From Candidatus Pacearchaeota archaeon (GTDB lineage Archaea; Nanobdellota; Nanobdellia; Pacearchaeales; UBA284): 32,000 nucleotides of DNA. Shown here one piece after another: positions 4,986 through 27,278 of this stretch (position 1 is the first letter of the stretch; each line of letters opens with the position of its first letter). The stretch is taken from NCBI GenBank assembly GCA_026016245.1, contig CP061211.1:90001-122000 (forward strand), given 5' to 3'. A program made the position numbers and the translations under genes. The notes beneath the pieces are model-generated. The model was not told the origin of the DNA and made no database searches. It saw only the letters and a program-made list of their open reading frames with translations.

Positions 4986-5116
4986 GCGTGAGTAGTCCAG
5001 TGGTAAGACGCAACCCTGCCAATAAATCTTTCCAGAAAGGTTTAATCAAAGCGAATCTTTGATGGGAAAGAAAAAGCAGAACGGTTGTGACCCGGGTTCG
5101 AATCCCGGCTCACGCA
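4986..5116 (+). tRNA. tRNA-Gly (anticodon GCC) with a 60-nt intron (5022-5081) at the canonical 37/38 position
   Basis: - Acceptor stem GCGTGAG/CTCACGC, discriminator A, no encoded CCA.
- D-arm GTCC-AGTGGTA-AGAC.
- Anticodon stem CAACC (5011-15)/GGTTG (5083-87), loop CTGCCA|…|C.
- T-arm CCGGG-TTCGAAT-CCCGG.
- A 4-bp central helix CUGC (5016-19)/GCAG (5076-79) is flanked by 3-nt bulges CAA and AAC, which is BHB-like. The spliced length is 71 nt. Confidence 0.88.
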
Positions 5117-5333: not shown

Positions 5334-6485
5334 ATGGAACGAGAAAATAATGAGATTAAAAATTTAGAAAATGAAGAAGAATTTAATAAAGAAAAAGAAA
5401 TATTAATTATTGATCTTGATAAAAATAAAAAAGATCTTTTTGAATTAGAAAAAAGAGAAGATTATTTGATAAAAAAGAAGGAACAAATAATTAATTCTGA
5501 GAAATATATATTCTCAAATAATTTGGATATCAAGCAAAAAGAAATAACTATAGATCTCAGTAAAATGAAAGAAAAAATAGTTTCTGATTTTTCAAAACTA
5601 AAAAAATCACTTAAAAAGTATCAAAGACTAGATATGACTTCTGAATTTGAAAAAAAACTTATTGATAATTATATTGCAAATGAATTAGAAGCCTTACTTA
5701 TTGATTCTAATCTTAAGATAATTGATATTCTAAATAATTTATCAAGAGCAATATCTGAAGAAAAGATAAGCGTAAAGGATAAAATAATTAATAGAATAAA
5801 AGAACAGATAAAAAAAATGAATTATGAATATTTAACAGATTTTATTAAAAAATACAATCTAATTATAGAAAATAAAAAGAAGCTTGAAAGTGAAATGCAG
5901 AAAAATGATGTAAAGAAAGATCTAGATAAGATAGAGAAAGAAATACATGAAATTAAAAATTTACAAAGTTCAATAAAATTAGAAAATGATTTAATGAAAC
6001 AGAAGTTAGTATCAAAAGAAAAATGGAAAAAATGTCCAAGATGTGGGAAAGAAATTCCTAATAATTGGAAACATCATCTAAAATGTGGATGGAAGGAAAA
6101 TGAAGAAGAGAGTAGAGAACAAGAATCTGATTCTAAAAAATCCAAAATAATGGTTTTCACATCTCCTACTTGCCCTCATTGTCTTCCTGCATTAAATTTA
6201 GCTAAACAGATTAAAAAAGAGAGAAATGTAAAAGTTATTGAAGTGAATACGGCAACCCCTCATGGACAGAAAAAAGCTAAGCAAATGGGAATAATGGCTG
6301 TTCCAACAATTTTTGTGAAGGGTCCTGCTTATCCACAAGTTATAGGTCTTAAAGGCTTACCATCAAAAAAAGGATTATTAAAAATCGTTGATATAAGTTT
6401 AGGTATTGAAGAATGGGAGAAATCAAAAGGATTTTTTAAAAATTTATTTAGTAAAATTAAAAAAAAATCAAATAAATCAGATTAG
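5334..6485 (+). CDS. Coiled-coil / zinc-ribbon / thioredoxin-fold (Mj0307-type glutaredoxin-like) fusion protein
   Basis: 383 aa. About 230 aa are K/E/N/I-rich heptad-like sequence. This is followed by CPRCGKEIPNNWKHHLKCG and then a C-terminal VFTSPTCPHC…GIMAVPTIFV thioredoxin-like domain with a CPHC redox motif. Confidence 0.75.
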   Translation: MERENNEIKNLENEEEFNKEKEILIIDLDKNKKDLFELEKREDYLIKKKEQIINSEKYIFSNNLDIKQKEITIDLSKMKEKIVSDFSKLKKSLKKYQRLDMTSEFEKKLIDNYIANELEALLIDSNLKIIDILNNLSRAISEEKISVKDKIINRIKEQIKKMNYEYLTDFIKKYNLIIENKKKLESEMQKNDVKKDLDKIEKEIHEIKNLQSSIKLENDLMKQKLVSKEKWKKCPRCGKEIPNNWKHHLKCGWKENEEESREQESDSKKSKIMVFTSPTCPHCLPALNLAKQIKKERNVKVIEVNTATPHGQKKAKQMGIMAVPTIFVKGPAYPQVIGLKGLPSKKGLLKIVDISLGIEEWEKSKGFFKNLFSKIKKKSNKSD

Positions 6486-6517: not shown

Positions 6518-7063
6518 ATGAAAATATTTACAATAGATGATGTTGTTTTGCATTGTAGCGAAGAAATGATAAGAGAATTTGAAGAAGATGTAGATCCTGA
6601 ATATGATCCTGAACTAGAAATTAATAGTTGTTTAGATAGTTCTTTAGAACAAAATCCTAAAATTAAAGAGCTGACTGAGTTATATTCTAAAATAAATGGA
6701 TTGAAAGGCAAAATTATTTTAAATGCTCATGGAGATTATAATTATAGAGATCATCTGTGGGTATACATAGATGATAATAAGGAATTTTCAGTACAAAAAT
6801 GGATAAATAAATATGATGGGAAATATTCTACATTAATCTTACATATCTGCAATTCTCTTTCAAAAGAAGTTTATTCCAAGAAATCAGCAGTTGTGCATTA
6901 CAATAATATTTATTCTGGGCTCGATCAGGATTGGGCTAATGTCCAAACTGAAATTTATATTCCTAAAATAGAATATGTTGATTCATATATTATAGATAAT
7001 GAAATAGAAAAAATGAGGAAAATGCTGAAGGATTTAAAGGAAGTTGATGTAACTTTTAAATAG
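6518..7063 (+). CDS. Hypothetical protein (181 aa)
   Basis: Intact ORF with the purine-rich stretch taagggaag immediately upstream of its ATG. No recognised motif. Confidence 0.6.
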   Translation: MKIFTIDDVVLHCSEEMIREFEEDVDPEYDPELEINSCLDSSLEQNPKIKELTELYSKINGLKGKIILNAHGDYNYRDHLWVYIDDNKEFSVQKWINKYDGKYSTLILHICNSLSKEVYSKKSAVVHYNNIYSGLDQDWANVQTEIYIPKIEYVDSYIIDNEIEKMRKMLKDLKEVDVTFK

Positions 7064-7123
7064 TTACAAACAGAAACCTTTAAAAATCTAGAATTCTAAA
7101 TTTATGTATAAATTATACATAAA

Positions 7124-7243
7124 ATGGCTAGAGTTAAGGGGAATCAAGATAGAAAGAAGAACGGAACTTTTATTCTGACAAAGAAAATAGCTAAGCATGG
7201 TTCTCAGACTCAATATCTTGTTAATCCAAGGGAGGCAGATTAA
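7124..7243 (+). CDS. Possible unannotated small basic ORF (39 aa), below the ORF-track cutoff
   Basis: ATG at 7124 to TAA at 7241-7243 encodes MARVKGNQDRKKNGTFILTKKIAKHGSQTQYLVNPREAD. It occupies an otherwise empty 188-bp gap and ends 8 bp before the next gene. Confidence 0.25.
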   Translation: MARVKGNQDRKKNGTFILTKKIAKHGSQTQYLVNPREAD

Positions 7244-7251
7244 TAATAAAA

Positions 7252-7959
7252 ATGAAAATAAATAAATTGTTAGGAAAAGTTGTCCAAGGAATAAAAGATA
7301 CTGCAAAAGTAGCTCTTTATACAGCACCTTTCTGGTTGCCTGGAGTTTTAGAAGCAAAACCACTTGATTTACAGAGGATAAAAGAGACTATAACAAAGGA
7401 ATATCAAAATGCTGCAAATGTGAAGTTTAGTAAGAAAGGATATGGTTTTTATGTTGGTATGATTTCAGATATTGGAAAAGGCTATCATTTAGATGTTGGC
7501 ATTAATAGCGCAACTCAAAATACAAATGGAGCAATTTTAAATAAAAATTTTGGACTAGAGGCTTCAACAGATTTCAATGGTAATAAAAGTTTAACTCTTG
7601 ATGGTATGATTGCTGGAACTGGGTTTAGTGCAAGAGGAAATCTTGCTTCTGATGGATCTAAAACAATAGATGGAAGTATCTTTAGGGCAGAACAGTTTGG
7701 AAAAGCAACTATTTATGGAAAAGTAGAAGGAGATAAGGATAATGCTAGTGCAAGTTCTTTTGGTTTCTATATTGGCCCAACAATAGGAAACGCAACAATA
7801 GTTCTTTTTGCACGTGGCTCAAAATCTTTGACTTCAGATGGCTATTATTTCATGGCGGGAACAGTAATTAGGAGTGGAAAACTTTCAACTAGTATAACAA
7901 CAGGAACAACTGATTTTAGTGAATGGATGCCTAGCTTAAAGATCCAGTATAAATTTTGA
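7252..7959 (+). CDS. Beta-strand-rich G/S/T/N-rich protein with an outer-membrane-protein-like C-terminal signature (…LKIQYKF) and a hydrophobic N-terminal segment
   Basis: 235 aa. N-terminal hydrophobic stretch VALYTAPFWLPGVLEA. Repeated alternating-hydrophobic strands are separated by G/N/D turns (GYGFYVGMISDIG, ATIVLFARG, YYFMAGTVIRSG). The terminal residue is Phe. Confidence 0.7.
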   Translation: MKINKLLGKVVQGIKDTAKVALYTAPFWLPGVLEAKPLDLQRIKETITKEYQNAANVKFSKKGYGFYVGMISDIGKGYHLDVGINSATQNTNGAILNKNFGLEASTDFNGNKSLTLDGMIAGTGFSARGNLASDGSKTIDGSIFRAEQFGKATIYGKVEGDKDNASASSFGFYIGPTIGNATIVLFARGSKSLTSDGYYFMAGTVIRSGKLSTSITTGTTDFSEWMPSLKIQYKF

Positions 7960-7973
7960 AGCTAAGGGAAAAA

Positions 7974-9164
7974 ATGCCATACAAAAAATTTGAAACAACT
8001 TTTAAGGGATTAGCCGAGAAAGTAATTTATTCTCTCAAAAACTATGAAGGAACAGAAAAATTTGCAAAAGTAGTGAGTGAAATAGTAGAGAGTACTTATG
8101 AAAAAAAGCCACAATTTAAAGAAGTTATTATTAAATCAAAAAAGGCTGAGTTAAAAGCTTTTGGGGAAAGTATTATTAATTATGCCAGTACTGGGGCTAA
8201 TTTCCTATTAACAGAAAAACAAGCAGAAAATTTTTATGGCTCGTTTATTGAGTTTATTACTGGTTTTGGATACGAGAGAGGATACGAGAGACAGAAAGCA
8301 CATTTTAGGATCCATAGGGACTTCATTGCGAGAAATGGGAAGAAATTTAGGTATGATGTGGAAAGCAATTTTCATCGGCACGAGGAACAACCAGAGTTGG
8401 GAGTAATAATGCCAGAGATAAAGAAAAAGTCTATTGTAGATGGATATAGCTTTAAGCAAGAAAGAACTAAAGTACAACAAAAAAGATTTGACGAAAGACA
8501 AGAAATAGCTTGGGATGCAGTTAATTTCGGTTTTGAAACTGCCTTACATACACCAAAAAAAGAAAATTCTTGTATTTCTTATGTTTGTATACCCCCTGTA
8601 AAAATAGAAAAGAAAAATTTAGTTAAAATTATAAATAAAGCTCTAGATGAAAAAGATGAAGTGGGATTAAATTATTTTTGTAAAGGATATAGTGGCCAAA
8701 AATTTGGTTACAAAATAAACTTAGAAAGAGAGAAGGATAATGTAAGGATAAAATTGTATGCAAGGGGACATAGAGATTATCAAGATGTGCTAAGGCATGC
8801 CTTAGATAAGTTAATACAATCAACTGGAATCTTGGTTGAAGATGGAGCAGAAGTAATTTATAAGGAAAAAGTGCCTGCAAAATGGACCTTACCTTTTGTT
8901 TATACAGGCAAAGGGATAGGATTTGTGGCAAAGTGGGGAACAAGTCCAGTATGGATTCCAATAAAATATGGTATTTTGTGGCCAATTTCAAAATTAAGAG
9001 ATAGAGCTGACAAAAAGAGAAAGAAAAAAGAAGATAGGTTATTAGAAGAATTTAAAAGAATTGGTCTTCGAGAGAATAAAGAGTATCCTAACAGCTGTTA
9101 TATATCTATCAATCCAGAATGCATGGAAAAAATAACTAAAAAAGTTGAGGACGAAGGAAAATGA
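7974..9164 (+). CDS. Hypothetical protein (396 aa from ATG 7974; an alternative TTG at 7956 overlaps the upstream stop)
   Basis: Long intact ORF. The stretch taagggaaaaa precedes ATG 7974. There is a hydrophobic W/P-rich segment near the C-terminus (GFVAKWGTSPVWIPIKYGILWPI). No recognised catalytic motif. Confidence 0.7.
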   Translation: MPYKKFETTFKGLAEKVIYSLKNYEGTEKFAKVVSEIVESTYEKKPQFKEVIIKSKKAELKAFGESIINYASTGANFLLTEKQAENFYGSFIEFITGFGYERGYERQKAHFRIHRDFIARNGKKFRYDVESNFHRHEEQPELGVIMPEIKKKSIVDGYSFKQERTKVQQKRFDERQEIAWDAVNFGFETALHTPKKENSCISYVCIPPVKIEKKNLVKIINKALDEKDEVGLNYFCKGYSGQKFGYKINLEREKDNVRIKLYARGHRDYQDVLRHALDKLIQSTGILVEDGAEVIYKEKVPAKWTLPFVYTGKGIGFVAKWGTSPVWIPIKYGILWPISKLRDRADKKRKKKEDRLLEEFKRIGLRENKEYPNSCYISINPECMEKITKKVEDEGK

Positions 9165-9553
9165 CTGAATTAAAAATAAGGAAATTCCTCCCAGAAAAAA
9201 TACATGAAGGAAGGGTAAAGAAATTAGAAAAAGACTTAGTTTCTCTTGTAAAAAAAGAATATCCTGATAATAGGGTAACAACCAGAAGATATCATCCTAT
9301 TCCTAGTGAGCGCTATTTACTTCTAGCTATAGATAGGAAAAAATATTTAGGTAAGTATCTTCAGCTCTTCAATAAAATTGAAACAACTCAGGTGTTGGAT
9401 TTAGCAAGGAGATTGCATAGGGAAGAACTATTAACAAAAGTAGATATTCGCCTTTATGATCCTTCTTTGTTAAATAAAGTTGAAAAAATGCTTAAAAATT
9501 ATGACTATTTTGATGTTAATCTATCTGTTTACCTTAAGGGAGAAGGGAAATGA
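9161..9553 (+). CDS. Hypothetical protein (130 aa)
   Basis: ATGA start/stop overlap with the upstream gene (9161-9164). No recognised motif. Confidence 0.7.
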   Translation: MTELKIRKFLPEKIHEGRVKKLEKDLVSLVKKEYPDNRVTTRRYHPIPSERYLLLAIDRKKYLGKYLQLFNKIETTQVLDLARRLHREELLTKVDIRLYDPSLLNKVEKMLKNYDYFDVNLSVYLKGEGK

Positions 9554-9894
9554 CATTAAAAGAAGTCGTTGAACAAAGGAAGAGAGAACTGAAGAAGATG
9601 ATTATGAAAACACCGAAGGATGAAGGAAGACTTTCACTAATGGTGACTTGTAGGTCTTGTTTGGTTTTTGGTTTTGTCTCCAATGAAAGAGCTTATAAAC
9701 ACTTTGTAATGGCTAGGCCTTATCTAAAAGAAATGTGCAAAGCAGCTTATGACGTTGGAGCATTATTTGGACCTCTTGAAAAAGATTATGCTGGAGAACA
9801 ATTAATTAATAAATGGTTGGCTAAAGAAATAGACAATTATCATGAACCTAAGAAAAGTTGTAAATCCAGGAAAAAATTTTTAGGTTTGTTCTAA
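9550..9894 (+). CDS. Hypothetical protein (114 aa) ending in …KKFLGLF
   Basis: ATGA overlap with the upstream gene (9550-9553). The stop lies 1 bp before the radical SAM start. The last 8 codons lie inside the 23-nt repeat. Confidence 0.7.
   Translation: MTLKEVVEQRKRELKKMIMKTPKDEGRLSLMVTCRSCLVFGFVSNERAYKHFVMARPYLKEMCKAAYDVGALFGPLEKDYAGEQLINKWLAKEIDNYHEPKKSCKSRKKFLGLF
9871..9893 (+). repeat. Direct repeat copy 1: AAAAAATTTTTAGGTTTGTTCTA
   Basis: 22/23 nt identical to 11215-11237. It sits immediately upstream of the radical SAM start codon. Confidence 0.85.
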
Positions 9895-9895
9895 A

Positions 9896-11227
9896 ATGAG
9901 AAATAGAAAAATTGCACTTATTTGTCCCCCAACAAATTATATTCCTGATAAAGACTATGAAAGAAAAGATTGGGAAATTAATGGATTACTCTGTTTAGAA
10001 TCTTTTTTGAGAGAAAAAGGATATGAACCAAAGATCATTGATTATCGAGAAGAATTTTCTTTGAATAATGAATATCTCAAAAGAATTGAAAAAGATATAA
10101 AAGATTTTTCGTTTATAGGGTTTCACACAGCTATTGATAGTTATCTTTCTTTAGAAAAAACCATTTCTTATTTAAAGGAAAAGAGAAAAAATTTACCAAT
10201 AATTCTTGGTGGTCCGCTTGTAAGTTCTTTTAAATTAAGTGAAGATAACTTAATTATGAAAAATATCCCTGCAGATATTGTAGTTATAGGAGAAGGAGAG
10301 CATACTCTATTAGAAATCTTACAATGTGTTGAACAAGAGAAAAAATTGAACAATATTAATGGGATTATTTATAGAGAACAAAATAAATTAATAGTGAATA
10401 GACCAAGAATGTTAATTAAGGATTTAAGTTCATTACCTTATGAGGACCATATGCAATGGCCAGATTTAAAAGAGACGATAAATGAAAAAAGATGGATTTC
10501 TGCTTTGTTTAGTAGAGGATGTTATTATAATTGTAGTTTTTGTTTTAAACTTATGAAAGGAGTTCGAAGGAGAAGTCTTGAACATATAGAAGAAGAGTTT
10601 GTTAATATAGAAAAAAATTTAGGAAAAAAGAGCATAATGATCACTGATGAAAATTTCATTTCTAATAGAGAATGGGCAATCGAAGTGTCAAACATCTTGG
10701 AAAAATATACAACCAATTGGAATTGTTGGTTAAGAGTTAATGATGTGGATTCAGATTTATTAAAAAAATTCAAAAGAAATAAGTGTGAAACAGTATGGTA
10801 TGGAATAGAGTCTTTTGATGAAGAAGTAATAAAGAGAACTGGGAAAAGAATAACTCCAGAACAATCTTTGAAAGCGATTGAAATGACTAAAGAAGCAGGA
10901 ATAGTGCCTTTTGGTTTTTTTATAATTGGATTACCCGGAGAAACAGAGAAGTCTCTAGAATATACTATCAAAATGATTGAAAAAAGTGGAGTTCTTCCTA
11001 GAGCTAATCTTTTATGCGTCTTTCCAGGAACAAAACTTTATTATGATGCATTAAGAAAGGGTTTAATAAAAGATGAATTAGAATATATAAAAAAGTTTGC
11101 TGAAAAAAACAGGCCACAAGGAGATGAAATTTTAATTAATATGACTTCTGTCAGTAATCAAAAATTAGTAGAGGCGAGAAACAAGATAAGAGATGATTTA
11201 AGGATAATAAATGAAAAAAATTTTTAG
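9896..11227 (+). CDS. B12-binding-domain radical SAM protein (class B-type)
   Basis: 443 aa. The N-terminal Rossmann-like region (IALICPP…, ILGGP, VVIGEGE) is typical of the cobalamin-binding domain. It is followed by the radical SAM cluster motif SRGCYYNCSFC (CxxxCxxC) and ITDENF / WYGIESF elements. Confidence 0.9.
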   Translation: MRNRKIALICPPTNYIPDKDYERKDWEINGLLCLESFLREKGYEPKIIDYREEFSLNNEYLKRIEKDIKDFSFIGFHTAIDSYLSLEKTISYLKEKRKNLPIILGGPLVSSFKLSEDNLIMKNIPADIVVIGEGEHTLLEILQCVEQEKKLNNINGIIYREQNKLIVNRPRMLIKDLSSLPYEDHMQWPDLKETINEKRWISALFSRGCYYNCSFCFKLMKGVRRRSLEHIEEEFVNIEKNLGKKSIMITDENFISNREWAIEVSNILEKYTTNWNCWLRVNDVDSDLLKKFKRNKCETVWYGIESFDEEVIKRTGKRITPEQSLKAIEMTKEAGIVPFGFFIIGLPGETEKSLEYTIKMIEKSGVLPRANLLCVFPGTKLYYDALRKGLIKDELEYIKKFAEKNRPQGDEILINMTSVSNQKLVEARNKIRDDLRIINEKNF

Positions 11228-11237
11228 GTTTGTTTTA
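11215..11237 (+). repeat. Direct repeat copy 2: AAAAAATTTTTAGGTTTGTTTTA
   Basis: 22/23 nt identical to 9871-9893. It spans the radical SAM stop codon (TAG 11225-11227) and lies upstream of the next gene. Confidence 0.85.
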
Positions 11238-11248
11238 GTTTCTGAAAG

Positions 11249-11659
11249 ATGAAAGATTCCTTAGAAAAAAGATTAGGCGGAATTGCGACAAAAATAATAA
11301 ACCCTAAAATTGGTGTAGTTACTGGAACAATAAGTGCATCTTATGCATTCTTTGTTAATGTTGGTCATGGTTTAACTCCTGCTGCTTTAGCTTCAGGAAA
11401 GCAATTTGCATTTAGTTTTTTATTTGGTGGTTTTGTTGGAAAAATTTGTCAATATTTTGCTAAAATGGAAAATAAATATCTTGCATGGACTTTGGGTGAA
11501 ATAGTCCCTAGTATTATAATGAGTAGTACCTTATATACAATTCATAAATTTAGTGGAACGCCAGAACCTTTAAAATCAATTATTCTTCCAGCAGCAATTG
11601 GTTTAACTGTATATGGTCCTGCTATAATTTATCTAACAAGAAAAGGCTATCTAAAATAG
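11249..11659 (+). CDS. Small integral membrane protein (136 aa, about 4 hydrophobic segments)
   Basis: Hydrophobic stretches IGVVTGTISASYAFFV, FAFSFLFGGFVG, IVPSIIMSSTLY and IILPAAIGLTVYGPAIIYL. It is the last gene of the cassette. Confidence 0.7.
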   Translation: MKDSLEKRLGGIATKIINPKIGVVTGTISASYAFFVNVGHGLTPAALASGKQFAFSFLFGGFVGKICQYFAKMENKYLAWTLGEIVPSIIMSSTLYTIHKFSGTPEPLKSIILPAAIGLTVYGPAIIYLTRKGYLK

Positions 11660-11703
11660 ATTCTCCTTACACTCCTCGAAAATTACGAAAATTCATCGTA
11701 AGA

Positions 11704-11711
11704 TTTAAATA
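11704..11711 (+). promoter_or_regulatory. Archaeal TATA box (TTTAAATA) within the motif AGATTTAAATAC
   Basis: The 12-nt AGATTTAAATAC at 11701-11712 also occurs at 14153-14164, where it sits 30 nt upstream of the Doc ATG. Confidence 0.45.
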
Positions 11712-11720
11712 CTACAAAAG

Positions 11721-11826
11721 GCGCGATTTTTTGTTCGAGATGGCGGAAGAATTTTTTAAGCACAACGGCGTCTTCGGATGTGCAGTTGACTTATAGGACT
11801 TCGGACGTCATCCCGTTCAACGCTTT
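11721..11826 (+). ncRNA. Candidate structured small RNA of unknown class (GC-rich island in an AT-rich intergenic region)
   Basis: - Local GC is clearly above the flanks.
- Two C(UUCG)G tetraloop motifs at 11772-11777 and 11799-11804.
- Complementary pairs: GCACA (11760-64)/UGUGC (11779-83), GAUGGC (11739-44)/GUCAUC (11807-12), and AACGG (11764-68)/CCGUU (11813-17).
- A TATA box lies upstream and a T-run (CGCTTTTCT) lies at the 3' end.
- Class and strand are not established. Confidence 0.3.
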
Positions 11827-11893
11827 TCTATTATAAAAAAACTTAAAAATACAAAATTCATTTAATATTTATCAAAGGAGGTTAAAAGTAAAA

Positions 11894-19182: not shown

Positions 19183-21096
19183 TTAATCAAAAATATGTAT
19201 GATTGTTGCTATAATTTTTGTGAAAATGTCAACATCTCTTATTGTAAAAAGGAATTCTTTTTCTGTCTCATATTCTTTGTATTTTTTATCTTGATATCTG
19301 AAAGTAATTTTTACAGGATTTTCACCTATTTCAAGTTTCCAAGTCTTTATTGGTATGTCTATTACTTGCGTATCTTTTTCTGTCAAGATTTCTTTTTTTT
19401 CCATATACTCTTGTGTTTCTATTATCATCTCAGCAGTCATTTGTGTATTTGACTCTATTACTGCTCTAAGATTACCTTTACTACCATAATTAGCTTCAGT
19501 ATTCTGTAGAGTGGTTATTTTAATCTCAGGACTATCTAGGATTACTATATCGATGCAAGAAACACCTATAACATCCCTTTTTTCCTTGGCTATAATACAT
19601 AAAATAAGACATTTCATTACACTTATGTCTTTTTTTTCACTCTCATTTATTTGTGAGGCGGGAATTTCAAGAGTTATATTTTTTTTCTCGTCTTTATTGA
19701 TTGTAAAATTTTCGCAGATGTTTTGATTGCATATGGAAAGTTCTTTTCTTTCCTCTCTGTTCTCAACAATACATTCCACAATCATGTTTTCATATTCATA
19801 ATAAGATTCTCCTAGAACTTTACAGTAAAAATCTATGTCTGCTTCTGTGTCATAAAGCGAGATAAAATGCTGTGCTTCACTTAAACTTATTCTAGTGGCT
19901 CCTTTTTTAAATATCACTATAGTATTGTCAAAGTTTTCAAAAACATCCTTTACTTCTAGAGTTGCTATACAACTATCCTGGCATTTCTCATAATTTTCTG
20001 AAGCCACGTAAATAATGAAATAATCTGTTACCTCACTTTGGGGTTTTAGCAGAAGGATTTTTTCACTTTCACCAAAAACTCCTGGAGCAAGTGAAACTCG
20101 GAAAGGTAGGGCAAGATAATAATTATGAGGATTTTTAACTTTTATTTCTAGAGGCAAGTATGAATCTGTTGAGATTTTATCTGTTAATGGATTTATTGTT
20201 ATGTCTATTGGCTGTGTAATTTTCTTACTATATTTTTTTATCTTTGTTTCTATTTCCAAGCTCTGTGTTTCTATCTCACCAATATATCTAAAATCTATTG
20301 AAGCTCTTCCAGCATCATTACTATACATCATGACAACATGACTTGAATCTAACCATCCATACTGGCCGAAAGTGGGATCAAAAGGAACCCAATCATGGCC
20401 AGGAATCCAGACTTCAGCCCATGCATGTTCCCCACATCTTTTTTCTTTGTTTGAATAAGCCATACCACTCACATATCTTGTTGCTAGGCCTAAAGACCTT
20501 GCTAAGGACATGAATAAGATAGTATAATGGGAACAGACTCCTTTCTTCTCTTGCATAATCCAACTTGCATTCTTGATTTCTTGATATTCTGGATCATATT
20601 CCATATTCTTCCTTACATATTCTGCCAGTTTGTATAATGTCTCAAAAGTATCTGTTGTGGCAAGTTGCTGAGCTTTGTTTTTTATAAAAGGGTCATCATT
20701 CAGAACATATTCTGCAGATTCAGTAAATTCTTCAAGGCCATCAGGAGATTTAGCCCCAGAAATATGAATCTTACCAACTCTTTTAATAACAATTTCTCTC
20801 TTAATCTCAGCATTAATTTCAAGCTTAAGAGTTCCTGTCTCTTCAAATTCAAATTCTATGCTGTCATCTTTTATTTCAGAATCTGGTTCTGTTATTAGAG
20901 TAACTTGCTGGTTTGCTGTTTCTTTAGGAAAAAGATAGAGGTTAACTATTATGTTTTCAGCCTCGCTTTGAATAATATTAGAAATTTTTATTGATAACTC
21001 AAGTTCTCCATAAATTGGGGAAAATTCTTCTGCGCTAACAAACCAAACAGAAAAAAGAAGAACAAAAATCAAAAAAAAGATAATTTTTCTTTTCAT
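19183..21096 (-). CDS. Secreted or anchored transglutaminase-like (Cys-His-Asp) domain protein
   Basis: 637 aa. Signal/anchor KIIFFLIFVLLFSVWFVSA. Transglutaminase core GVCSHYTILFMSLARSLGLATRYVSG…GEHAWAEVWIPGHDWVPFDPT. Long beta-rich C-terminal region. Confidence 0.8.
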   Translation of the reverse strand: MKRKIIFFLIFVLLFSVWFVSAEEFSPIYGELELSIKISNIIQSEAENIIVNLYLFPKETANQQVTLITEPDSEIKDDSIEFEFEETGTLKLEINAEIKREIVIKRVGKIHISGAKSPDGLEEFTESAEYVLNDDPFIKNKAQQLATTDTFETLYKLAEYVRKNMEYDPEYQEIKNASWIMQEKKGVCSHYTILFMSLARSLGLATRYVSGMAYSNKEKRCGEHAWAEVWIPGHDWVPFDPTFGQYGWLDSSHVVMMYSNDAGRASIDFRYIGEIETQSLEIETKIKKYSKKITQPIDITINPLTDKISTDSYLPLEIKVKNPHNYYLALPFRVSLAPGVFGESEKILLLKPQSEVTDYFIIYVASENYEKCQDSCIATLEVKDVFENFDNTIVIFKKGATRISLSEAQHFISLYDTEADIDFYCKVLGESYYEYENMIVECIVENREERKELSICNQNICENFTINKDEKKNITLEIPASQINESEKKDISVMKCLILCIIAKEKRDVIGVSCIDIVILDSPEIKITTLQNTEANYGSKGNLRAVIESNTQMTAEMIIETQEYMEKKEILTEKDTQVIDIPIKTWKLEIGENPVKITFRYQDKKYKEYETEKEFLFTIRDVDIFTKIIATIIHIFD

Positions 21097-21100
21097 TGTT

Positions 21101-22144
21101 TTATTTTTTAATTAACTCAAATAATTTATCTCTAAATTTCGGCAGATCCTCCACACTAAGAGAGGCTCCTGAAGCTTTTTCATGTCCTCCACTTGTACTT
21201 TCTATTCCTTCTAAGGCCTTGGCAATTAAATCCCTGACATTTATATTCCCTCTGATAGAAATATTAGCTTTTGTTCCTTTAATATATGCCACAACAACAA
21301 TTCTGTCTGGGTAAAAATAAGAAAGTTCATTAGAAAGTTCACTGCTTAGACTTAACTCGCCGCCATACTGAAAGAAAAGAAGCTTTTTGCTTGTTCTTGC
21401 TATATCTCTTGCCCTGCTTAATATCTTCTCATACTTTTTATTAATCTGCTTGTATCTTCTATGTATTGATGATGTTTTTATTGTAATGTCAAGAATTTCA
21501 CGAGGATTTTTTAAAGTCAGAAGGTTTTTAAGCATCTTCACAACAATACTTGTCCTGTCTTTAAGAGCAAAACTTAGCATTTTCACAATGCGGCCAATTT
21601 CAGTCTCATATAATGCTTTTGCAGGATCTTTTGTTAGGATAAAAAGATCAGGATATTCTTTAGAAAATGATTCATCAAATTCTGGAATATACCAGTCAGC
21701 TAAACAGCCTATCATTGATATCCATTCATCCTCTTTTCTTTTTGTGATTTTGTAAGCCCAGTAAGAAGTTGGCTCATTACTTGGTTTATTTTGCAAAGGA
21801 TTAAAATAAAAAATTCCTTCTTCATTAGTATAATCTGGAGCAGGATGATGATCAAGCCATATAATAGGCACTCCAAATTCCCTGGCAGAATCTCTAAAAC
21901 CTTTCTCTATCAGCGGCTTATCAAGGACAAAAACATAATCTGGTTTAAATTCATACAATCGCCTAGCATGAGAAACACTTAGATCAGGAAAACTTTTTAT
22001 TGCAACACCTTTACCTTTTCCACAAAATCTCGCCAAAAGTAAAAAAGAAGCTAGGCCATCAACATCATTATCAAAAAGAAATAAAGGATTTTGGGCTTTC
22101 TCTAAAAAATCTCTGAATTTTTCTATTTGTTTTGGAGTCAGCAT
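21101..22144 (-). CDS. DHH/DHHA1-family phosphoesterase (stand-alone NrnA/DhhP-like; candidate c-di-AMP / nanoRNA phosphodiesterase)
   Basis: 347 aa. Motifs FDNDVDGLAS (DxD), IIWLDHHP (DHH) and SGGHEKASGA (the DHHA1 GGH motif). The start is 3 bp after the disA stop. Confidence 0.85.
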   Translation of the reverse strand: MLTPKQIEKFRDFLEKAQNPLFLFDNDVDGLASFLLLARFCGKGKGVAIKSFPDLSVSHARRLYEFKPDYVFVLDKPLIEKGFRDSAREFGVPIIWLDHHPAPDYTNEEGIFYFNPLQNKPSNEPTSYWAYKITKRKEDEWISMIGCLADWYIPEFDESFSKEYPDLFILTKDPAKALYETEIGRIVKMLSFALKDRTSIVVKMLKNLLTLKNPREILDITIKTSSIHRRYKQINKKYEKILSRARDIARTSKKLLFFQYGGELSLSSELSNELSYFYPDRIVVVAYIKGTKANISIRGNINVRDLIAKALEGIESTSGGHEKASGASLSVEDLPKFRDKLFELIKK

Positions 22145-22147
22145 TTT

Positions 22148-23254
22148 TTAAATTCTCTTTCCAACTAGAACTTGCTCTTTTAATTTTTTTAACTCTTTAA
22201 TCAATTTGTTTGCATCTTTTTCTCCTATAACTCTTGTGATTTTATCTGGTTCTGTTTCTATTGTGTTAAGTATTGATGGGAAATTTTTGAAATATCCTAT
22301 CAGAGTATCTTTTGATTCCTGGCTTACAGAGACTTTTGATAAAAGTCTATAGCCTATAGGCATTACAGGATCTGAAGGACTTGAATAAAGTAATACTCTT
22401 ATAATATTTTCTGATTCAAGAACCTCGTTGAAATTTAAAGTAGCCAGGGCTGTCTTTGTAAATTCCCAGTTTCTACTGTAATCCATAAGCAAGAGATTTT
22501 TTTCTTTATCAACTCCTTTAATAACTTCTTTAAGCAAAATTTCCACAAGATTTCCTTCATTTCCAAGTTCAATCAAATATTTTTTTATTGTTTCTGCAAT
22601 TCTAGAAATAATTTCCATCTTTTGAATACAGGAAATAATGTCTCTAAGACTTTCAAAATTAGCAAATTCAAGCACATTCAAATTTACAAGCAATTCATTA
22701 AGTATTTCTCTATGCTTCTCTAACATTCTCAAAGTCTCAACAGTCTTGCTAAGAACTCTTTCAGTATTCCTTAAGGCATATTTGGTATTTTTATAATACA
22801 GATTTATTGTTTTTCTTCTTTCAGAGACTGCTATAACTGGCCTGGAAGTCTGTTTTGCTGTTCTTTCAGCAGCCTTGTGTCTTGTACCTGTTTCATGAGT
22901 TTCAATATTATGATCTGGAACAAGTAAGGTATTACAATAAACAATCTTTTTTAAGTCATCTGATAAAATAATGGCTCCATCCATCTTACTAAGCTCAACA
23001 AGTTTCTGTGGTGTAAATTTACAATCAATCTTAAAACCACCATTTGTAGTTTTAAGTACTTCTTGACTGTCACCAACGACAATCAAAGAACCCATGCTGG
23101 CTTTGACCATATCATCAATAGCTGTTCTTAATTTTGTGCCTGGTCTTACTAGTTTAACTATCTCAAAAAGTTCATCGAGATCTCGTTCACGTCTTTCACG
23201 CTCAGCCTCCCTTTCAGCTTCTTTTTTTATTTCTTCTTTTTCTTGGGTATTCAT
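22148..23254 (-). CDS. disA: DisA-type diadenylate cyclase (DNA integrity scanning protein)
   Basis: 368 aa. DAC domain motifs GSLIVVGDS, DGAIILSDD and HETGTRHKAAERTAKQT, with SRPVIAVSERR. This is followed by a helical linker and a C-terminal HhH-like region (LLSKV…GYFKNF…I). There is an extra highly charged ~35-aa N-terminal extension. Confidence 0.9.
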   Translation of the reverse strand: MNTQEKEEIKKEAEREAERERRERDLDELFEIVKLVRPGTKLRTAIDDMVKASMGSLIVVGDSQEVLKTTNGGFKIDCKFTPQKLVELSKMDGAIILSDDLKKIVYCNTLLVPDHNIETHETGTRHKAAERTAKQTSRPVIAVSERRKTINLYYKNTKYALRNTERVLSKTVETLRMLEKHREILNELLVNLNVLEFANFESLRDIISCIQKMEIISRIAETIKKYLIELGNEGNLVEILLKEVIKGVDKEKNLLLMDYSRNWEFTKTALATLNFNEVLESENIIRVLLYSSPSDPVMPIGYRLLSKVSVSQESKDTLIGYFKNFPSILNTIETEPDKITRVIGEKDANKLIKELKKLKEQVLVGKRI

Positions 23255-24246
23255 CTTAATTTTAATAATTTCAAGGCTTCTTTAAATATAGCTTCTTCTT
23301 CATTAGCTTTAATTACAAATACTTTGAATTTTGGTAAAAATTTTAGATAACTTAGCACTTTTTGTCTGACTGGCTTGGAAGCTTCTCCAATGCCGCCAGA
23401 GAATGCCAAAACATCTATCCCATTAAGAGCAGCAGTATAAGAAGCTATGTACTTAGCAATATTATAACAAAAAAATTCAAAAGCAAGCTTATATTTTTTG
23501 CTTCTCCTTCTTGCCACTATTTTTTCGACATCTGTTATTCCACTTAAGGCAAAAAGACCAGATTTCTTATTAAGCATCTTTTCTACATTCCTGAAACTAA
23601 ATTTTTCTATAAGAAATAATATAATCCCAGGATCAATACTGCCACTTCTCGTAACCATGCAAGGACCTTCTAAAGGAGTTAAACCCATGCTAGTATCTAC
23701 AGCCTTGCCATTCAAAACAGCACTAATACTGCAACCTGCACCAAGATGGCATGTTACAATCCTTAAATTTTTCTTTCTCATTTGCTTTAAAATTTGTTCA
23801 CTTACATACTGATGATTTATTCCATGAAAACCATAACGCCTTATTTTATATTTTTTTAATATCTTAGAAGGCAAGGCATAAGTCTTAGTTTTTTCAGGAA
23901 GCTCAGAAAAGAAAGCAGTATCAAAAACTCCTATTTGTTTTATTCCAAACTTTCTACAGATTTCAATAGTCCTAATTTCGTGAGGATTATGTAATGGAGC
24001 AAATCTCGAGTATTTTTTTATTTTTTTCAGAATAGAAGGAGTAATAAAACAAGGTTTACTTATTGGGCCTCCATGAACAATCCTATGGACTATGATATCT
24101 GGATTAAACTTCCCAACAATTTTTTCTATAATTTTTCTGTTTACTCTAGTGTAGATTATTTTCTTTTCTCTAACCTTATTATTTTCATAAAAAGCATACT
24201 TTATTGTTTTTGAGCCTATATTAAAGATTAAAATTTTTCTTTTCAT
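23251..24246 (-). CDS. ackA: Acetate (propionate) kinase, shortened form
   Basis: 331 aa. Motifs ILIFNIGSKTIKY, VHRIVHGG, FAPLHNP, FDTAFF, RRYGFHGINHQYV, VTCHLGAGCSISAV…VDTSMGLTPLEG, TRSGSIDPG, NKKSGL, FSGGIGE and ANEEEAI. The TGA overlaps the disA ATG (ATGA). Confidence 0.82.
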   Translation of the reverse strand: MKRKILIFNIGSKTIKYAFYENNKVREKKIIYTRVNRKIIEKIVGKFNPDIIVHRIVHGGPISKPCFITPSILKKIKKYSRFAPLHNPHEIRTIEICRKFGIKQIGVFDTAFFSELPEKTKTYALPSKILKKYKIRRYGFHGINHQYVSEQILKQMRKKNLRIVTCHLGAGCSISAVLNGKAVDTSMGLTPLEGPCMVTRSGSIDPGIILFLIEKFSFRNVEKMLNKKSGLFALSGITDVEKIVARRRSKKYKLAFEFFCYNIAKYIASYTAALNGIDVLAFSGGIGEASKPVRQKVLSYLKFLPKFKVFVIKANEEEAIFKEALKLLKLR

Positions 24247-24256
24247 CTTAATTTTT

Positions 24257-24640
24257 CTACTGAAATTTTCTTACAAGAGTTAAGTTTCCTTTTTCATCCC
24301 AAGCACCTAAACCAGTTGTGTCAAGAGCTTCTATTATTTTTCTTTTTGGAAATAACTTCTTAAGATTATAGACTCCAGCATCGCATGCAAGAACTATAGT
24401 CACATCTCCGTGTAGTTCATCTTTCTTTAACTGGTCAAAATCACAAGGAACTCCGATTAAATCCATATCAACCACCTTAAAGTCATCTTTTTTTAATTTT
24501 TCAGCCAGTTTTTTCATTTCTTTCTCACCACCAGTTTCACAAAGCTTGGCACAACTATTACACGAAACTATCCCTATTTTATCTTTTTTGTCTAATTGTG
24601 CCTTGATTAAGCCATAAGGTTTCAAAGCTGTTATTATCAT
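24257..24640 (-). CDS. Hypothetical small Cys-containing protein (127 aa) between pta and ackA
   Basis: Contains GIVSCNSCAKLCETGG, GVPCDFD and VLACDAG. These might bind a metal or cluster, but I do not recognise the family with confidence. Confidence 0.6.
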   Translation of the reverse strand: MIITALKPYGLIKAQLDKKDKIGIVSCNSCAKLCETGGEKEMKKLAEKLKKDDFKVVDMDLIGVPCDFDQLKKDELHGDVTIVLACDAGVYNLKKLFPKRKIIEALDTTGLGAWDEKGNLTLVRKFQ

Positions 24641-24643
24641 TTT

Positions 24644-25495
24644 TTACCTCCTTTCAATTTTTTTATTTTTCCTCTGCTCATTAACCTGCAAAACAGTTAT
24701 TGCAGCAAGTGCAACAATATCCTCAACTTTACATCCTCTGGATAAGTCATTAACTTGCTTGCTTAGGCCTTGTAATACTGGACCAATAGCTTGCCATCCC
24801 CCAAGCTGCTCCACAAGTTTATATCCAATGTTAGCTGCATCAAGATTTGGAAAAATTAAGACATTTGCATTAATAGACTTTATTCCTTTTCTTTTGGCAA
24901 TCACTGCATTCAAGGCAGCATCAGCCTGAATTTCTCCTTTCATGATTAACTTAGGATATTTTTTCTTTAAAATTCTCAATGCTTTTGAAACTTTTTGAAG
25001 ACTTTTGCCTTTGCCAGAACCATGAGTTGAGTATGACAATAAAGCTATTCGTGGTTTTTTTATTGTTATCAGTTCAAAAGTTTCTGCACTTAGTAAGGCA
25101 ATTTCAGCTAATTGTCTTGGACTAGGATCTGGTTGAGCAGCGCAGTCAGCAAAAAGCAGCACTTTTTTCTTATCAGGAGAGATCATTAAAAAAGAACCAC
25201 TAACATGATTGATATTTTTTCTCATAAAATCAAATGAAAGTAAAATAGCTAAGATACTTGAATGGCTTGCTCCTGAAATAACAGCATCAACTTTATCTTG
25301 TTTTAACATCAATCTAGCTAAGTTTATTTTTTTCTCTATATTTACTTTTTCATTGAGAAATAAAGGCTTAGCAATTTTTTGTCTTTTGATGATTCTCGCA
25401 GCTCTTTTCACACGATTATCTTCATCTAGAAAAAGAATCTTTACAGGATTTCTTTTATTAATTTTGCACGCTCTTTTTTTTATTTTAAGAATCAT
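24644..25495 (-). CDS. pta: Phosphate acetyl/butyryl-transferase (PTA_PTB family), shortened form
   Basis: 283 aa. Motifs DAVISGASHSS, FADCAAQPDPSPRQLAEIA, LLSYSTHGSGKG, GEIQADAAL, ANVLIFPNLDAANIGYKL and GPVLQGLSKQVNDLSRGC. Confidence 0.82.
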   Translation of the reverse strand: MILKIKKRACKINKRNPVKILFLDEDNRVKRAARIIKRQKIAKPLFLNEKVNIEKKINLARLMLKQDKVDAVISGASHSSILAILLSFDFMRKNINHVSGSFLMISPDKKKVLLFADCAAQPDPSPRQLAEIALLSAETFELITIKKPRIALLSYSTHGSGKGKSLQKVSKALRILKKKYPKLIMKGEIQADAALNAVIAKRKGIKSINANVLIFPNLDAANIGYKLVEQLGGWQAIGPVLQGLSKQVNDLSRGCKVEDIVALAAITVLQVNEQRKNKKIERR

Positions 25496-26402: not shown

Positions 26403-27278
26403 ATGATAAGTTTACCAAAAGCAGCAATCGTGGCAGCAACAATCCCAACAGTTCTATTAGGGCAATATCATACATTTTCTGGTTTTGTTTATCCAGCAGC
26501 AAATAATGTTCCAACTGATAGTGGTCCAGTAGCAATTGTTAATCCTTCAAATGATACTATCTGGACAAAAATTGGACAAGATATGGATAATTTCTATACA
26601 CGAACATCAGATCCTGGTTGGATATATGACGGTGATACTGTTAAAGTATCTGTTGCAGATACAACAGGACAGACAGCAAGTACATTTAGGATAGTAAAAC
26701 CTACTGCAAACTATTTAACAACTCTTTTTCCTGGTGGTCATGCTTTTGTTGTCAATAAAGTATGGGATAGTGTTGATAGTGTTGATGCAAAATGTTGGGT
26801 AAAAGGCAAGCCTGATACACTTAATGGAAGATTTAGGATAGGAATTCCTGATGATGATATTTATTTTAATAGAGGAAAATTTCTAGATCCCCCTGCATTA
26901 AATGATAGTATTATTTTTGAAATATCAGAAGGAAGTTTATATGCAAGAACAGGATGTAAATATGAAAGAGCATTGTGGGATGCTGATTCTGCACCAAGTT
27001 GTTCATTAAATATAGTTGGTATTGGAGAAAATCTTGAGAATAAAGTTCAAGAACCATTTTCTTTAATAAAAACAAATCCTGTAACAAATGGAATTTTGAA
27101 TTTAAATCAAAAAGGAAATTTTGTTCTTTACAATGCCGCAGGCAGTCTTGTAAAAAAAGCAAATGGAGATAAAATTAATGTTAAAACATTACCTTCAGGA
27201 GCATATTTCTTATTTACAAAACCAAAAGATTCTGGTGAATTATTGTATAAGCCAGAAAAAGTTGTGATTATGAATTAA
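26403..27278 (+). CDS. Secreted protein with a C-terminal Por/T9SS-type sorting-domain-like tail
   Basis: 291 aa. N-terminal hydrophobic segment AAIVAATIPTVLLG. The last ~70 aa (NPVTNGILNLNQKGNFVLYNAAGSLVKKANGDKINVKTLPSGAYFLFTK…KVVIMN) follow the NPxxxxLxL / xLYxxxGxxV / LxxGxYFxxx pattern of Por_Secre_tail-like domains. Confidence 0.7.
   Translation: MISLPKAAIVAATIPTVLLGQYHTFSGFVYPAANNVPTDSGPVAIVNPSNDTIWTKIGQDMDNFYTRTSDPGWIYDGDTVKVSVADTTGQTASTFRIVKPTANYLTTLFPGGHAFVVNKVWDSVDSVDAKCWVKGKPDTLNGRFRIGIPDDDIYFNRGKFLDPPALNDSIIFEISEGSLYARTGCKYERALWDADSAPSCSLNIVGIGENLENKVQEPFSLIKTNPVTNGILNLNQKGNFVLYNAAGSLVKKANGDKINVKTLPSGAYFLFTKPKDSGELLYKPEKVVIMN

Follow-up and report, generated by a model that had tools for sequence, protein, structure and literature searches.

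A six-gene cassette with a cobalamin-domain radical SAM enzyme in a Pacearchaeota genome: probably a lineage-specific patchwork

The curated families of class B radical S-adenosylmethionine (SAM) enzymes, such as PhpK, MgmA, HpnJ, and BchE, share a layout in which an N-terminal B12 (cobalamin) domain precedes a radical SAM core that carries a CxxxCxxC motif for a [4Fe-4S] cluster. An enzyme with this layout, and with full-length similarity to several class B models, is encoded in a metagenome-assembled genome of a Candidatus Pacearchaeota (DPANN) archaeon, as the fifth of six same-strand open reading frames (ORF1 to ORF6) at positions 7252 to 11659 of a 32,000-nt stretch, hereafter the window (positions 90,001 to 122,000 of the 710,724-bp contig CP061211.1). 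A sequence-only reading of the window had called these six genes, had named them as its best candidate for an undescribed system, built around the radical SAM enzyme, and had proposed, as a hypothesis, a role in surface modification or in peptide or lipid maturation. All six are present at these coordinates and are also annotated in GenBank as IB618_00545 to IB618_00570. We consider it rather likely that the cassette is a lineage-specific, probably polycistronic patchwork unit of one Pacearchaeota genome and not a conserved multi-component system. What is new here is a class B radical SAM member in an operon of uncharacterized proteins, and the novelty is modest.

ORF5 (IB618_00565, 443 amino acids [aa], positions 9896 to 11227, + strand) was correctly recognized from the letters alone as a B12-domain radical SAM enzyme. 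Its radical SAM core scores 81.2 bits against PF04055 (cutoff, 29.5), and residues 25 to 141 form a Rossmann-like B12-binding domain that scores 41.0 bits against PF02310 (cutoff, 32.1). The cluster motif C209-x3-C213-x2-C216 is invariant across 29 ORF5 homologues. The other five proteins contain no motif that could be named, as had also been said. Where ORF5 departs from the curated class B families is in its distance from all of them. The best NCBIfam match, the P-methyltransferase family PhpK (TIGR04479), reaches 162.9 bits against a cutoff of 600, followed by HpnJ (134 against 578), BchE (116 against 481), and MgmA (TIGR04014; 95.9 against 360), so that scores fall about 4 to 8 times below the cutoffs. 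The nearest homologues among 5.8 billion proteins are 37 to 38% identical, and further close relatives (P0006 to P0016) are 32 to 36% identical. In a neighbor-joining (NJ) tree, ORF5 and the homologues at loci L001, L003, and L017 make up a small clade of DPANN archaea only; as its sister group, this clade has bacterial enzymes that come as pairs of paralogues. Judged by sequence, ORF5 is a member of the class B radical SAM superfamily and of no curated subfamily.

The best PDB sequence match of ORF5 is 9CCB, which is MgmA (PMC11796369), at an E value of 1.7e-15 and 60 bits. MgmA, the glutamine C-methyltransferase of MCR, is a class B radical SAM enzyme that methylates protein; the Pacearchaeota archaeon is not known to be a methanogen and would lack this substrate. 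The match could point to a module resembling those for ribosomally synthesized and post-translationally modified peptides (RiPPs), in which ORF3 and/or ORF4 would be precursors C-methylated by ORF5, as with PoyC, ApyD, CysS, and MgmA. The NCBIfam matches of ORF5 to RiPP methyltransferase models and the 1-nt distance between ORF4 and ORF5 fit such a module. However, the RiPP and MgmA models all score far below their cutoffs (98.8 against 750 for ApyD, NF050148; 73.8 against 282 for TIGR03975), and Pfam and NCBIfam find no RiPP recognition element (RRE)/PqqD, protease, or transporter domain in ORF1 to ORF4 or ORF6. At 114 to 130 aa, ORF3 and ORF4 are long for precursors and lack relatives, the clade-mates of ORF5 have no ORF3-like or ORF4-like genes nearby, and the adjacency of ORF4 and ORF5 appears to be secondary, as described below. 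We regard a RiPP-like module as highly improbable.

The distribution of its families bears on the cassette as a whole. We searched all ORFs of 96 loci with phmmer and hmmsearch, using the six proteins and the family profiles of ORF1 and ORF2. Around the ORF5 relatives of GTDB species representatives (80 loci), and in L001, L003, and L005, no relative of ORF1, ORF2, ORF3, ORF4, or ORF6 lies within ±6 kb. The five loci of ORF1 orthologues (L007 to L011) contain none of ORF2 to ORF6, and the loci of the ORF2 family have no class B radical SAM gene and no other cassette relative nearby. ORF1, ORF2, and ORF5 belong to separate families whose other members never co-occur with each other in the examined loci. 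Nowhere else did we find at least three members co-localized, as in a conserved multi-gene system, and across 98 loci no pair of families was found together within ±6 to 10 kb. The sequence-only reading had named in advance, as the outcome that would count against an undescribed system, that homologues never co-localize in other genomes, and in the genomes examined this is, at the sequence level, what we found.

The position of ORF5 within the cassette suggests a separate arrival. The radical SAM gene is bracketed by a direct repeat, AAAAAATTTTTAGGTTTGTTYTA, whose left copy (9871 to 9894, + strand) is the 3' end of ORF4 and whose right copy (11215 to 11238, + strand) lies at the 3' end of ORF5. 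Exactly two occurrences of its 23-nt form are found in the window (9871 to 9893 and 11215 to 11237); shuffled sequences give a mean expectation of 0.01, and none of 100 shuffles had at least two matches. Over 24 nt, both copies encode KKFLGLF and a stop, the C terminus of ORF4, with two synonymous differences (TTC to TTT and TAA to TAG). The right copy reads this way in its own frame, and in another frame it supplies the last codons and stop of ORF5. On the simplest reading of the repeat, ORF4 was formerly adjacent to ORF6, and the radical SAM gene was inserted between them and duplicated its target. The cassette would then not be built around the enzyme, and a repeat that brackets exactly this gene contradicts the earlier claim that it was. 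The two 24-nt copies look like a target-site duplication, but neither a transposase gene nor an integrase gene lies nearby.

The whole block also differs from the sister genome at locus L007. The window is syntenic with L007, with 87.5% identity for the thermosome, 65% for a 181-aa ORF, 91% for a 74-aa ORF, and 84% for endonuclease V. In L007, the 181-aa gene is directly followed by a 168-nt non-coding element (L007 4695 to 4862) that is 86% identical to window positions 11671 to 11836. In the window, the same two landmarks are parted by positions 7033 to 11670, which hold a 39-aa ORF and ORF1 to ORF6. Because the landmarks are adjacent in L007, the alignment identifies block 7033 to 11670 as an insertion or translocation relative to that genome. 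ORF1 has left its usual kinase and AbrB-like neighborhood and has taken along what remains of the small ORF that is usually found ahead of the kinase gene. This remnant is the truncated 39-aa ORF (7124 to 7243, + strand), whose counterparts of 48 to 69 aa precede a Ser/Thr kinase gene in relatives; by tblastn, it matches a 69-aa ORF of L007 (74% over 23 aa, E value of 1.6e-6) and a 58-aa ORF of L010 (59% over 34 aa, E value of 2e-7). Directly 5' of it is an A/T-rich, TATA-like stretch (about 7079 to 7123), which may be a promoter, and GGGAGG is found 14 nt upstream of the start codon of ORF1.

On its right side, the inserted block is delimited by the conserved non-coding element itself (11671 to 11840, + strand), a GC-rich spacer that is not part of the cassette. 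Within it is an invariant core of 66 nt plus 30 nt with two UUCG hairpins, a conserved TTTAAATA box about 25 nt upstream of position 11735 or so, and an oligo-T tail. The element is a candidate for an unannotated small RNA gene. It has no Rfam match at an E value of 1 or less, and the z-score of its minimum free energy is -1.0. A metagenome scan with the invariant core recovered only the organism of L007. The flanking proteins are 65 to 91% identical between the two Pacearchaeota genomes, and the element itself is 86% identical.

Because the block is inserted relative to the sister genome, contains orphan genes, and carries ORF1, whose orthologues are followed by a different region in every relative, it might have been horizontally acquired as a mobile, defense, or viral island, for example, a defense system with a radical SAM enzyme; ORF5 does match PADLOC model PDC-M51A at 65.6 bits. 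Any class B radical SAM enzyme gives a generic match of this order, however, and the PHROGs matches likewise are to generic radical SAM only. The other five proteins have no PHROG or PADLOC match, and the rest of the PDC-M51 system was not found, two further upstream ORFs giving no match either. No integrase, transposase, or att-like long repeat was identified, and the GC content and codon usage of the block are indistinguishable from those of the host. Five scans of IMG/VR, covering the ORF1 family, ORF2, ORF3, ORF4, and ORF6 (ORF5 was not among them), recovered no relatives. We therefore give a mobile island very little credence, the least of the readings considered here.

The six ORFs themselves are sound. 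In this A+T-rich DNA (GC content of about 31%), the stop probability is 0.076 per codon, and the chance of at least 114 stop-free codons is about 1e-4. Third-position GC content (GC3) and codon preferences of the six ORFs cannot be distinguished from those of the housekeeping genes in the window. Long open frames and housekeeping-like codon usage together indicate real, native-looking genes. They form a discrete unit, bordered by gaps of 188 and 234 bp and flanked by archaeal housekeeping genes (thermosome, deoxyhypusine synthase, endonuclease V, phosphoenolpyruvate [PEP] synthase, L10e, L15e, and Nre).

From ORF1 to ORF6, the junctions are spaced by +14, -4, -4, +1, and +21 nt. ORF2/ORF3 and ORF3/ORF4 are ATGA overlaps, ORF4 and ORF5 are separated by 1 nt, and ORF5 and ORF6 are separated by 21 nt. 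Four of the five junctions had thus been read correctly, and the remaining one, a TTGA overlap of ORF1 and ORF2 at 7959/7956, is probably wrong. ORF2 almost certainly starts at the ATG at 7974 and not at the TTG at 7956, because GenBank annotates this start, the Shine-Dalgarno-like motif AAGGGA lies 7 nt upstream of it, and all nine relatives of ORF2 have the resulting MPY/WK N terminus. Every internal start in the cassette is preceded by a purine-rich, Shine-Dalgarno (SD)-like motif, and since each carries its own, a single transcription unit is plausible. The further claim that the packing implies fixed stoichiometry did not hold up. By greedy ORF calling, the coding density is about 95%, and half of the other same-strand junctions (13 of 26) are equally tight, at 21 bp or less. 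A second tight run, with five junctions at 19183 to 25495, joins genes for a transglutaminase, a DHH phosphoesterase, DisA, acetate kinase, a 127-aa ORF, and Pta. Tight packing is a property of this genome and also joins unrelated genes, and it thus cannot carry an inference of fixed stoichiometry or shared function.

ORF1 (IB618_00545, 235 aa, positions 7252 to 7959, + strand) belongs to a small, Pacearchaeota-restricted family with five homologues of 51 to 60% identity. The six aligned sequences have a Lys-rich N terminus followed by the hydrophobic segment ALYTAPFWLPGVLEA, Gly/Ser/Thr-rich strands with an alternating pattern, and an invariant C-terminal K-x-K-F; a C-terminal L-x-I-x-Y-x-F with a terminal aromatic residue was also noted. 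By inspection, ORF1 thus has a signal-peptide-like N terminus and a C-terminal aromatic beta-signal. No sequence match was found in Pfam, NCBIfam, or PDB. The AlphaFold2 (AF2) model has 14 consecutive up-down beta-strands at low confidence (predicted local distance difference test [pLDDT] of 56), and all Foldseek matches in PDB with an E value below 1e-3 are bacterial outer membrane beta-barrels (FapF, OmpU, KdgM, NanC, and Omp33; template modeling [TM] scores of 0.4 to 0.5). Like these barrels of 12 to 16 strands, ORF1 would form an up-down meander with alternating hydrophobic residues and a C-terminal aromatic; it differs in lacking sequence homology to them, in the low confidence of its model, and in its archaeal host. 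The model lends support to the earlier description of ORF1 as a beta-rich protein resembling outer membrane proteins, and we predict it to be a porin-like beta-barrel. Archaea such as this host are not known to have an outer membrane or BAM/Omp85 insertion machinery, and in the literature, we found no description of porin-like beta-barrels in Pacearchaeota.

In L007 to L011, the ORF1 orthologues are preceded by a small ORF, a Ser/Thr kinase gene, and an opposite-strand gene for a 294-aa AbrB-like protein, and the genes on their 3' side differ in every genome. In L007, these are a 149-aa ORF, a 119-aa ORF, and a short-chain dehydrogenase gene. We considered the 149-aa and 119-aa ORFs as equivalents of ORF6 or ORF4 and ruled this out, as there is no similarity. 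A hypervariable slot thus appears beside a conserved secreted beta-rich protein at L007 10761 to 12503, L010 4123 to 4443, L011 1888 to 2540, and L001 5410 to 5999. Upstream, the kinase and 294-aa AbrB-like pair is conserved, in contrast to this variable downstream slot.

ORF2 (IB618_00550, 396 aa, positions 7974 to 9164, + strand) does have the predicted length of about 400 aa and a W/P-rich hydrophobic loop, but it is not a strict orphan. A word-indexed search of the 5.8 billion proteins returned only ORF2 itself, and an exhaustive search recovered nine relatives (E values of 2e-6 to 9e-4), which define a sparse, uncharacterized archaeal family. Its members consist of the N-terminal MPY/WK, two alpha/beta lobes, a central SC..YVC.P motif, the W/P-rich loop, a basic helix, and a C-terminal SC.I.v.P.C motif. 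M1, P147, G157, V204, C205, N368, and C375 are invariant in the alignment of 10 sequences. Of the cysteines in the two motifs (residues about 199 to 205 and 375 to 383), the inner pair never varies, and 3 of the 10 sequences lack both outer cysteines, a paired loss that suggests a metal site or paired disulfides. The family has no relatives in Pfam or PDB. The AF2 model of ORF2 (pLDDT of 70, predicted TM score [pTM] of 0.67) gives weak fold matches, START/Bet v 1 and CYTH-like, with query-normalized TM scores of at most 0.22, and a BFVD search was likewise weak. A more speculative reading, of low probability, is that DPANN archaea have in this family a new Cys-cluster protein that associates with membranes and has a helix-grip or tunnel fold.

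Elsewhere, ORF2-family genes stand alone among housekeeping genes: the first separates those for RNase P Rpp14 and proteasome-alpha, another follows RNA polymerase subunit genes, a third adjoins Vps4/HicAB, and a fourth precedes a RIO kinase gene. An ORF2-family member (P0132; L012/L013 8001 to 9164) and the closest ORF5 homologue (P0003; L001 6001 to 7338) both lie directly 5' of a proteasome-alpha gene. In these two different archaeal genomes, proteasome-alpha heads an SBDS-Rrp4-Rrp41-Rrp42 exosome string; the shared position may mark a hot spot for insertions or be coincidental.

The remaining three genes encode singletons. ORF3 (IB618_00555, 130 aa, positions 9161 to 9553, + strand) is basic and soluble. 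ORF4 (IB618_00560, 114 aa, positions 9550 to 9894, + strand) is basic with four Cys, and its last eight codons are those copied at the 3' end of ORF5. ORF6 (IB618_00570, 136 aa, positions 11249 to 11659, + strand) is a small membrane protein with three to four hydrophobic segments, in line with the approximately four transmembrane segments proposed before; the description of ORF3 and ORF4 as small orphans is likewise upheld. None of the three has a family match in Pfam, NCBIfam, PHROGs, or PADLOC, each forms a singleton cluster, and no relative was found in the 98 fetched loci or in IMG/VR.

A single pathway of all six proteins could still exist if it were confined to this lineage, where comparative genomics would not see it. 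In such a surface-modification or peptide- or lipid-maturation pathway, the substrate of the radical SAM enzyme would be ORF3, ORF4, a lipid, or a glycan, and ORF1 and ORF6 would belong to the envelope. The genes do stand on one strand as a discrete unit, with starts that carry SD-like motifs and overlap or nearly abut the preceding gene, two of the proteins are of envelope type, and small, basic, Cys-containing proteins are encoded directly 5' of the radical SAM gene. However, no two of the families co-occur elsewhere in the examined loci, tight packing is the genome-wide norm, the radical SAM gene is apparently a secondary insert between ORF4 and ORF6, and members of the ORF2 family occur alone in housekeeping contexts. 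We consider this pathway unlikely, if less so than the RiPP-like module or the mobile island. We also considered a lipid role for ORF5 related to Tes, the glycerol dialkyl glycerol tetraether (GDGT) synthase, and dropped it; according to the Tes paper, Pacearchaeota have no Tes homologue, and B12 or cobalamin is not mentioned there.

To place ORF5 in context, we clustered the neighbors of its homologues across more than 80 loci. Recurrent neighbors are paralogous B12-radical SAM enzymes, family 2 (GT2) glycosyltransferases, other radical SAM enzymes, SAM methyltransferases, and epimerases. ORF5 might then be a glycan (sugar) C-methyltransferase for an S-layer or N-glycan, like many B12-radical SAM enzymes encoded in glycosyltransferase clusters of Pacearchaeota and Woesearchaeota. 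GT2 glycosyltransferases are the commonest neighbors (35 of 80 loci), and epimerase, flippase-like, and NeuB-like genes also recur. The homologues fall into two tiers, however. The glycan clusters belong to the distant tier (below 200 bits), including other Pacearchaeota and Woesearchaeota, whose enzymes lie in NJ clades separate from that of ORF5, whereas the ten closest loci are outside glycan clusters. The cassette and its surroundings also lack glycosyltransferase and sugar-nucleotide genes, and we judge a glycan C-methyltransferase to be very unlikely.

The closer homologues have neighbors of another kind. Same-strand genes for beta-rich signal-peptide proteins lie 5' of the radical SAM gene in L001 (395 aa, ending in YSVSF) and directly 5' of it in L003 (322 aa, ending in KRKF). 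In L017, the gene directly 5' encodes a Peripla_BP_6 solute-binding protein (SBP; amino-acid type) and adjoins ATP-binding cassette (ABC) permease and ATPase genes. Among the bacterial loci, L022 has Porin_O_P directly 3' of the radical SAM gene plus a Phosphonate-bd/NMT1 SBP and an ABC transporter; L005 has DUF2490 at the head of an operon with an ABC transporter, two radical SAM enzymes, and a methyltransferase; and L018 has two methyltransferases, a paralogous radical SAM enzyme, and a Phosphodiest-family protein, which belongs to the alkaline phosphatase superfamily. By a crude metric that is too coarse for statistics, porin-like ORFs are rare in archaeal loci, where they number about 5 to 6 among the 335 ORFs with 150 or more aa. 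A recurring theme of an envelope or uptake protein with a radical SAM enzyme is suggested by analogy among these loci.

One locus similar to the cassette is L001 (archaeal contig ERZ27250602 k141_1000132), with genes for a kinase, the 294-aa AbrB-like protein (- strand), a methyltransferase (- strand), the 395-aa beta-rich protein, a 53-aa ORF, a 143-aa ORF, and the radical SAM enzyme. It shares the gene orientation with the cassette and encodes the homologue nearest to ORF5 (37%). The small KKIAKHG ORF is also present in one copy, and the position of ORF1 is taken by a beta-rich signal-peptide protein ending in Phe. It differs in that its intervening genes are unrelated to ORF2 to ORF4, it lacks ORF6, and its 395-aa protein is not detectably homologous to ORF1. 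The bacterial clusters (L005, L018 to L022, and L025) are comparable in that their enzymes form the sister clade of ORF5 and a beta-barrel or envelope uptake gene stands beside the radical SAM gene. Unlike them, the window has a single radical SAM gene, not a pair of paralogues, and no methyltransferase, SBP, ABC, or alkaline phosphatase (AP)-superfamily gene, and ORF1 has no sequence similarity to Porin_O_P or DUF2490.

These bacterial loci include a recurrent cluster (L018 1795 to 10153, L019 to L022, and L025) of two paralogous B12-radical SAM enzymes with a UbiE-like methyltransferase on either side (two in all) and a secreted Phosphodiest-family protein. It occurs in Omnitrophota, Planctomycetes, Elusimicrobia, and Nitrospirae and is apparently uncharacterized. 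Often added are an adenosine 5'-phosphosulfate (APS)-kinase/cytidylyltransferase fusion, an amidinotransferase-like protein, and a phosphonate/NMT1-type ABC importer.

The patchwork that we favor would have arisen by local rearrangement, which would have brought together three independently distributed families and three singletons, with the radical SAM gene added last. By analogy with its relatives, ORF5 would be a cobalamin-dependent radical SAM enzyme that is catalytically active, most likely as a methyltransferase. Its substrate would probably be a small molecule that the cell scavenges or a compound associated with the envelope, and not a product of ORF2 to ORF4. We propose this role because signal-peptide proteins are encoded 5' of three archaeal clade-mates, because of the contexts of the bacterial sister clade, and because, of the curated families, PhpK-type methyltransferases resemble it best. 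ORF1, as a secreted beta-barrel-like protein, and ORF6, as a small membrane protein, may be envelope components of this role; ORF2 to ORF4 would most likely be unrelated passengers. A more specific version holds that the DPANN radical SAM clade works with an extracytoplasmic capture or channel protein (porin-like here, in L001, and in L003), that enzyme and partner both derive from bacterial porin/SBP-ABC/radical SAM clusters, and that the pair serves these host-dependent archaea to scavenge an external, possibly phosph(on)ate-like solute and radical-methylate it. This version is quite doubtful, somewhat more so than the six-protein pathway.

Several points weigh against the patchwork and the role proposed for ORF5. 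The ORF1 family, the beta-rich proteins of L001 and L003, Porin_O_P of L022, and DUF2490 of L005 have mutually no detectable sequence similarity, so the theme of envelope protein and radical SAM enzyme is an analogy and not demonstrated conservation. The ORF1 model is of low confidence, and the substrate and chemistry of ORF5 are drawn entirely from analogy. Undetected homologues of ORF3, ORF4, and ORF6 do not disprove operon function, as small, fast-evolving partners could escape detection. The survey covered about 100 loci and gave context for only four members of the DPANN clade. Finally, the repeat on the two sides of ORF5 could have another origin, as a regulatory or SD-bearing element that was duplicated.

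Other features of the window lie apart from the cassette. A 131-nt tRNA at 4986 to 5116 (+ strand; Rfam, 54.6 bits) presumably contains an intron and was not reported by ARAGORN. The sole ARAGORN call, a tRNA-Gln at 23663 to 23750 (- strand), falls inside the acetate kinase ORF (23251 to 24246), was not confirmed by Rfam, and is likely a false positive. The 383-aa protein encoded at 5334 to 6485 (+ strand) has a long Lys/Glu-rich coiled-coil N terminus, a zinc-ribbon-like CPRCG, and a C-terminal glutaredoxin/thioredoxin domain; its gene is absent at the syntenic position in L007. A 291-aa protein encoded at 26403 to 27278 (+ strand) has a near-threshold match to Por_Secre_tail (24.1 bits against a cutoff of 27). 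Por_Secre_tail is the C-terminal sorting domain of bacterial type IX secretion and would be odd in an archaeon.

That a new six-gene system is not upheld saves follow-up effort, and the cassette illustrates that in DPANN genomes, the overlap of start and stop codons is a weak signal of functional linkage. Three parts retain modest value: the class B radical SAM clade of DPANN archaea, which, like its bacterial sister clade, is accompanied by genes for uptake or envelope proteins instead of glycan genes; the small family of predicted porin-like beta-barrels in Pacearchaeota, which are thought to have a single membrane; and the sparse archaeal ORF2 family with its co-varying four-Cys signature. 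If the capture or channel version were true, single-membrane Pacearchaeota and Woesearchaeota would deploy beta-barrels like those of outer membranes, with the S-layer space and the membrane of the host as examples of possible sites. The radical SAM clade, the beta-barrel family, or the ORF2 family could bear on how genome-reduced symbiotic archaea acquire metabolites from their hosts.

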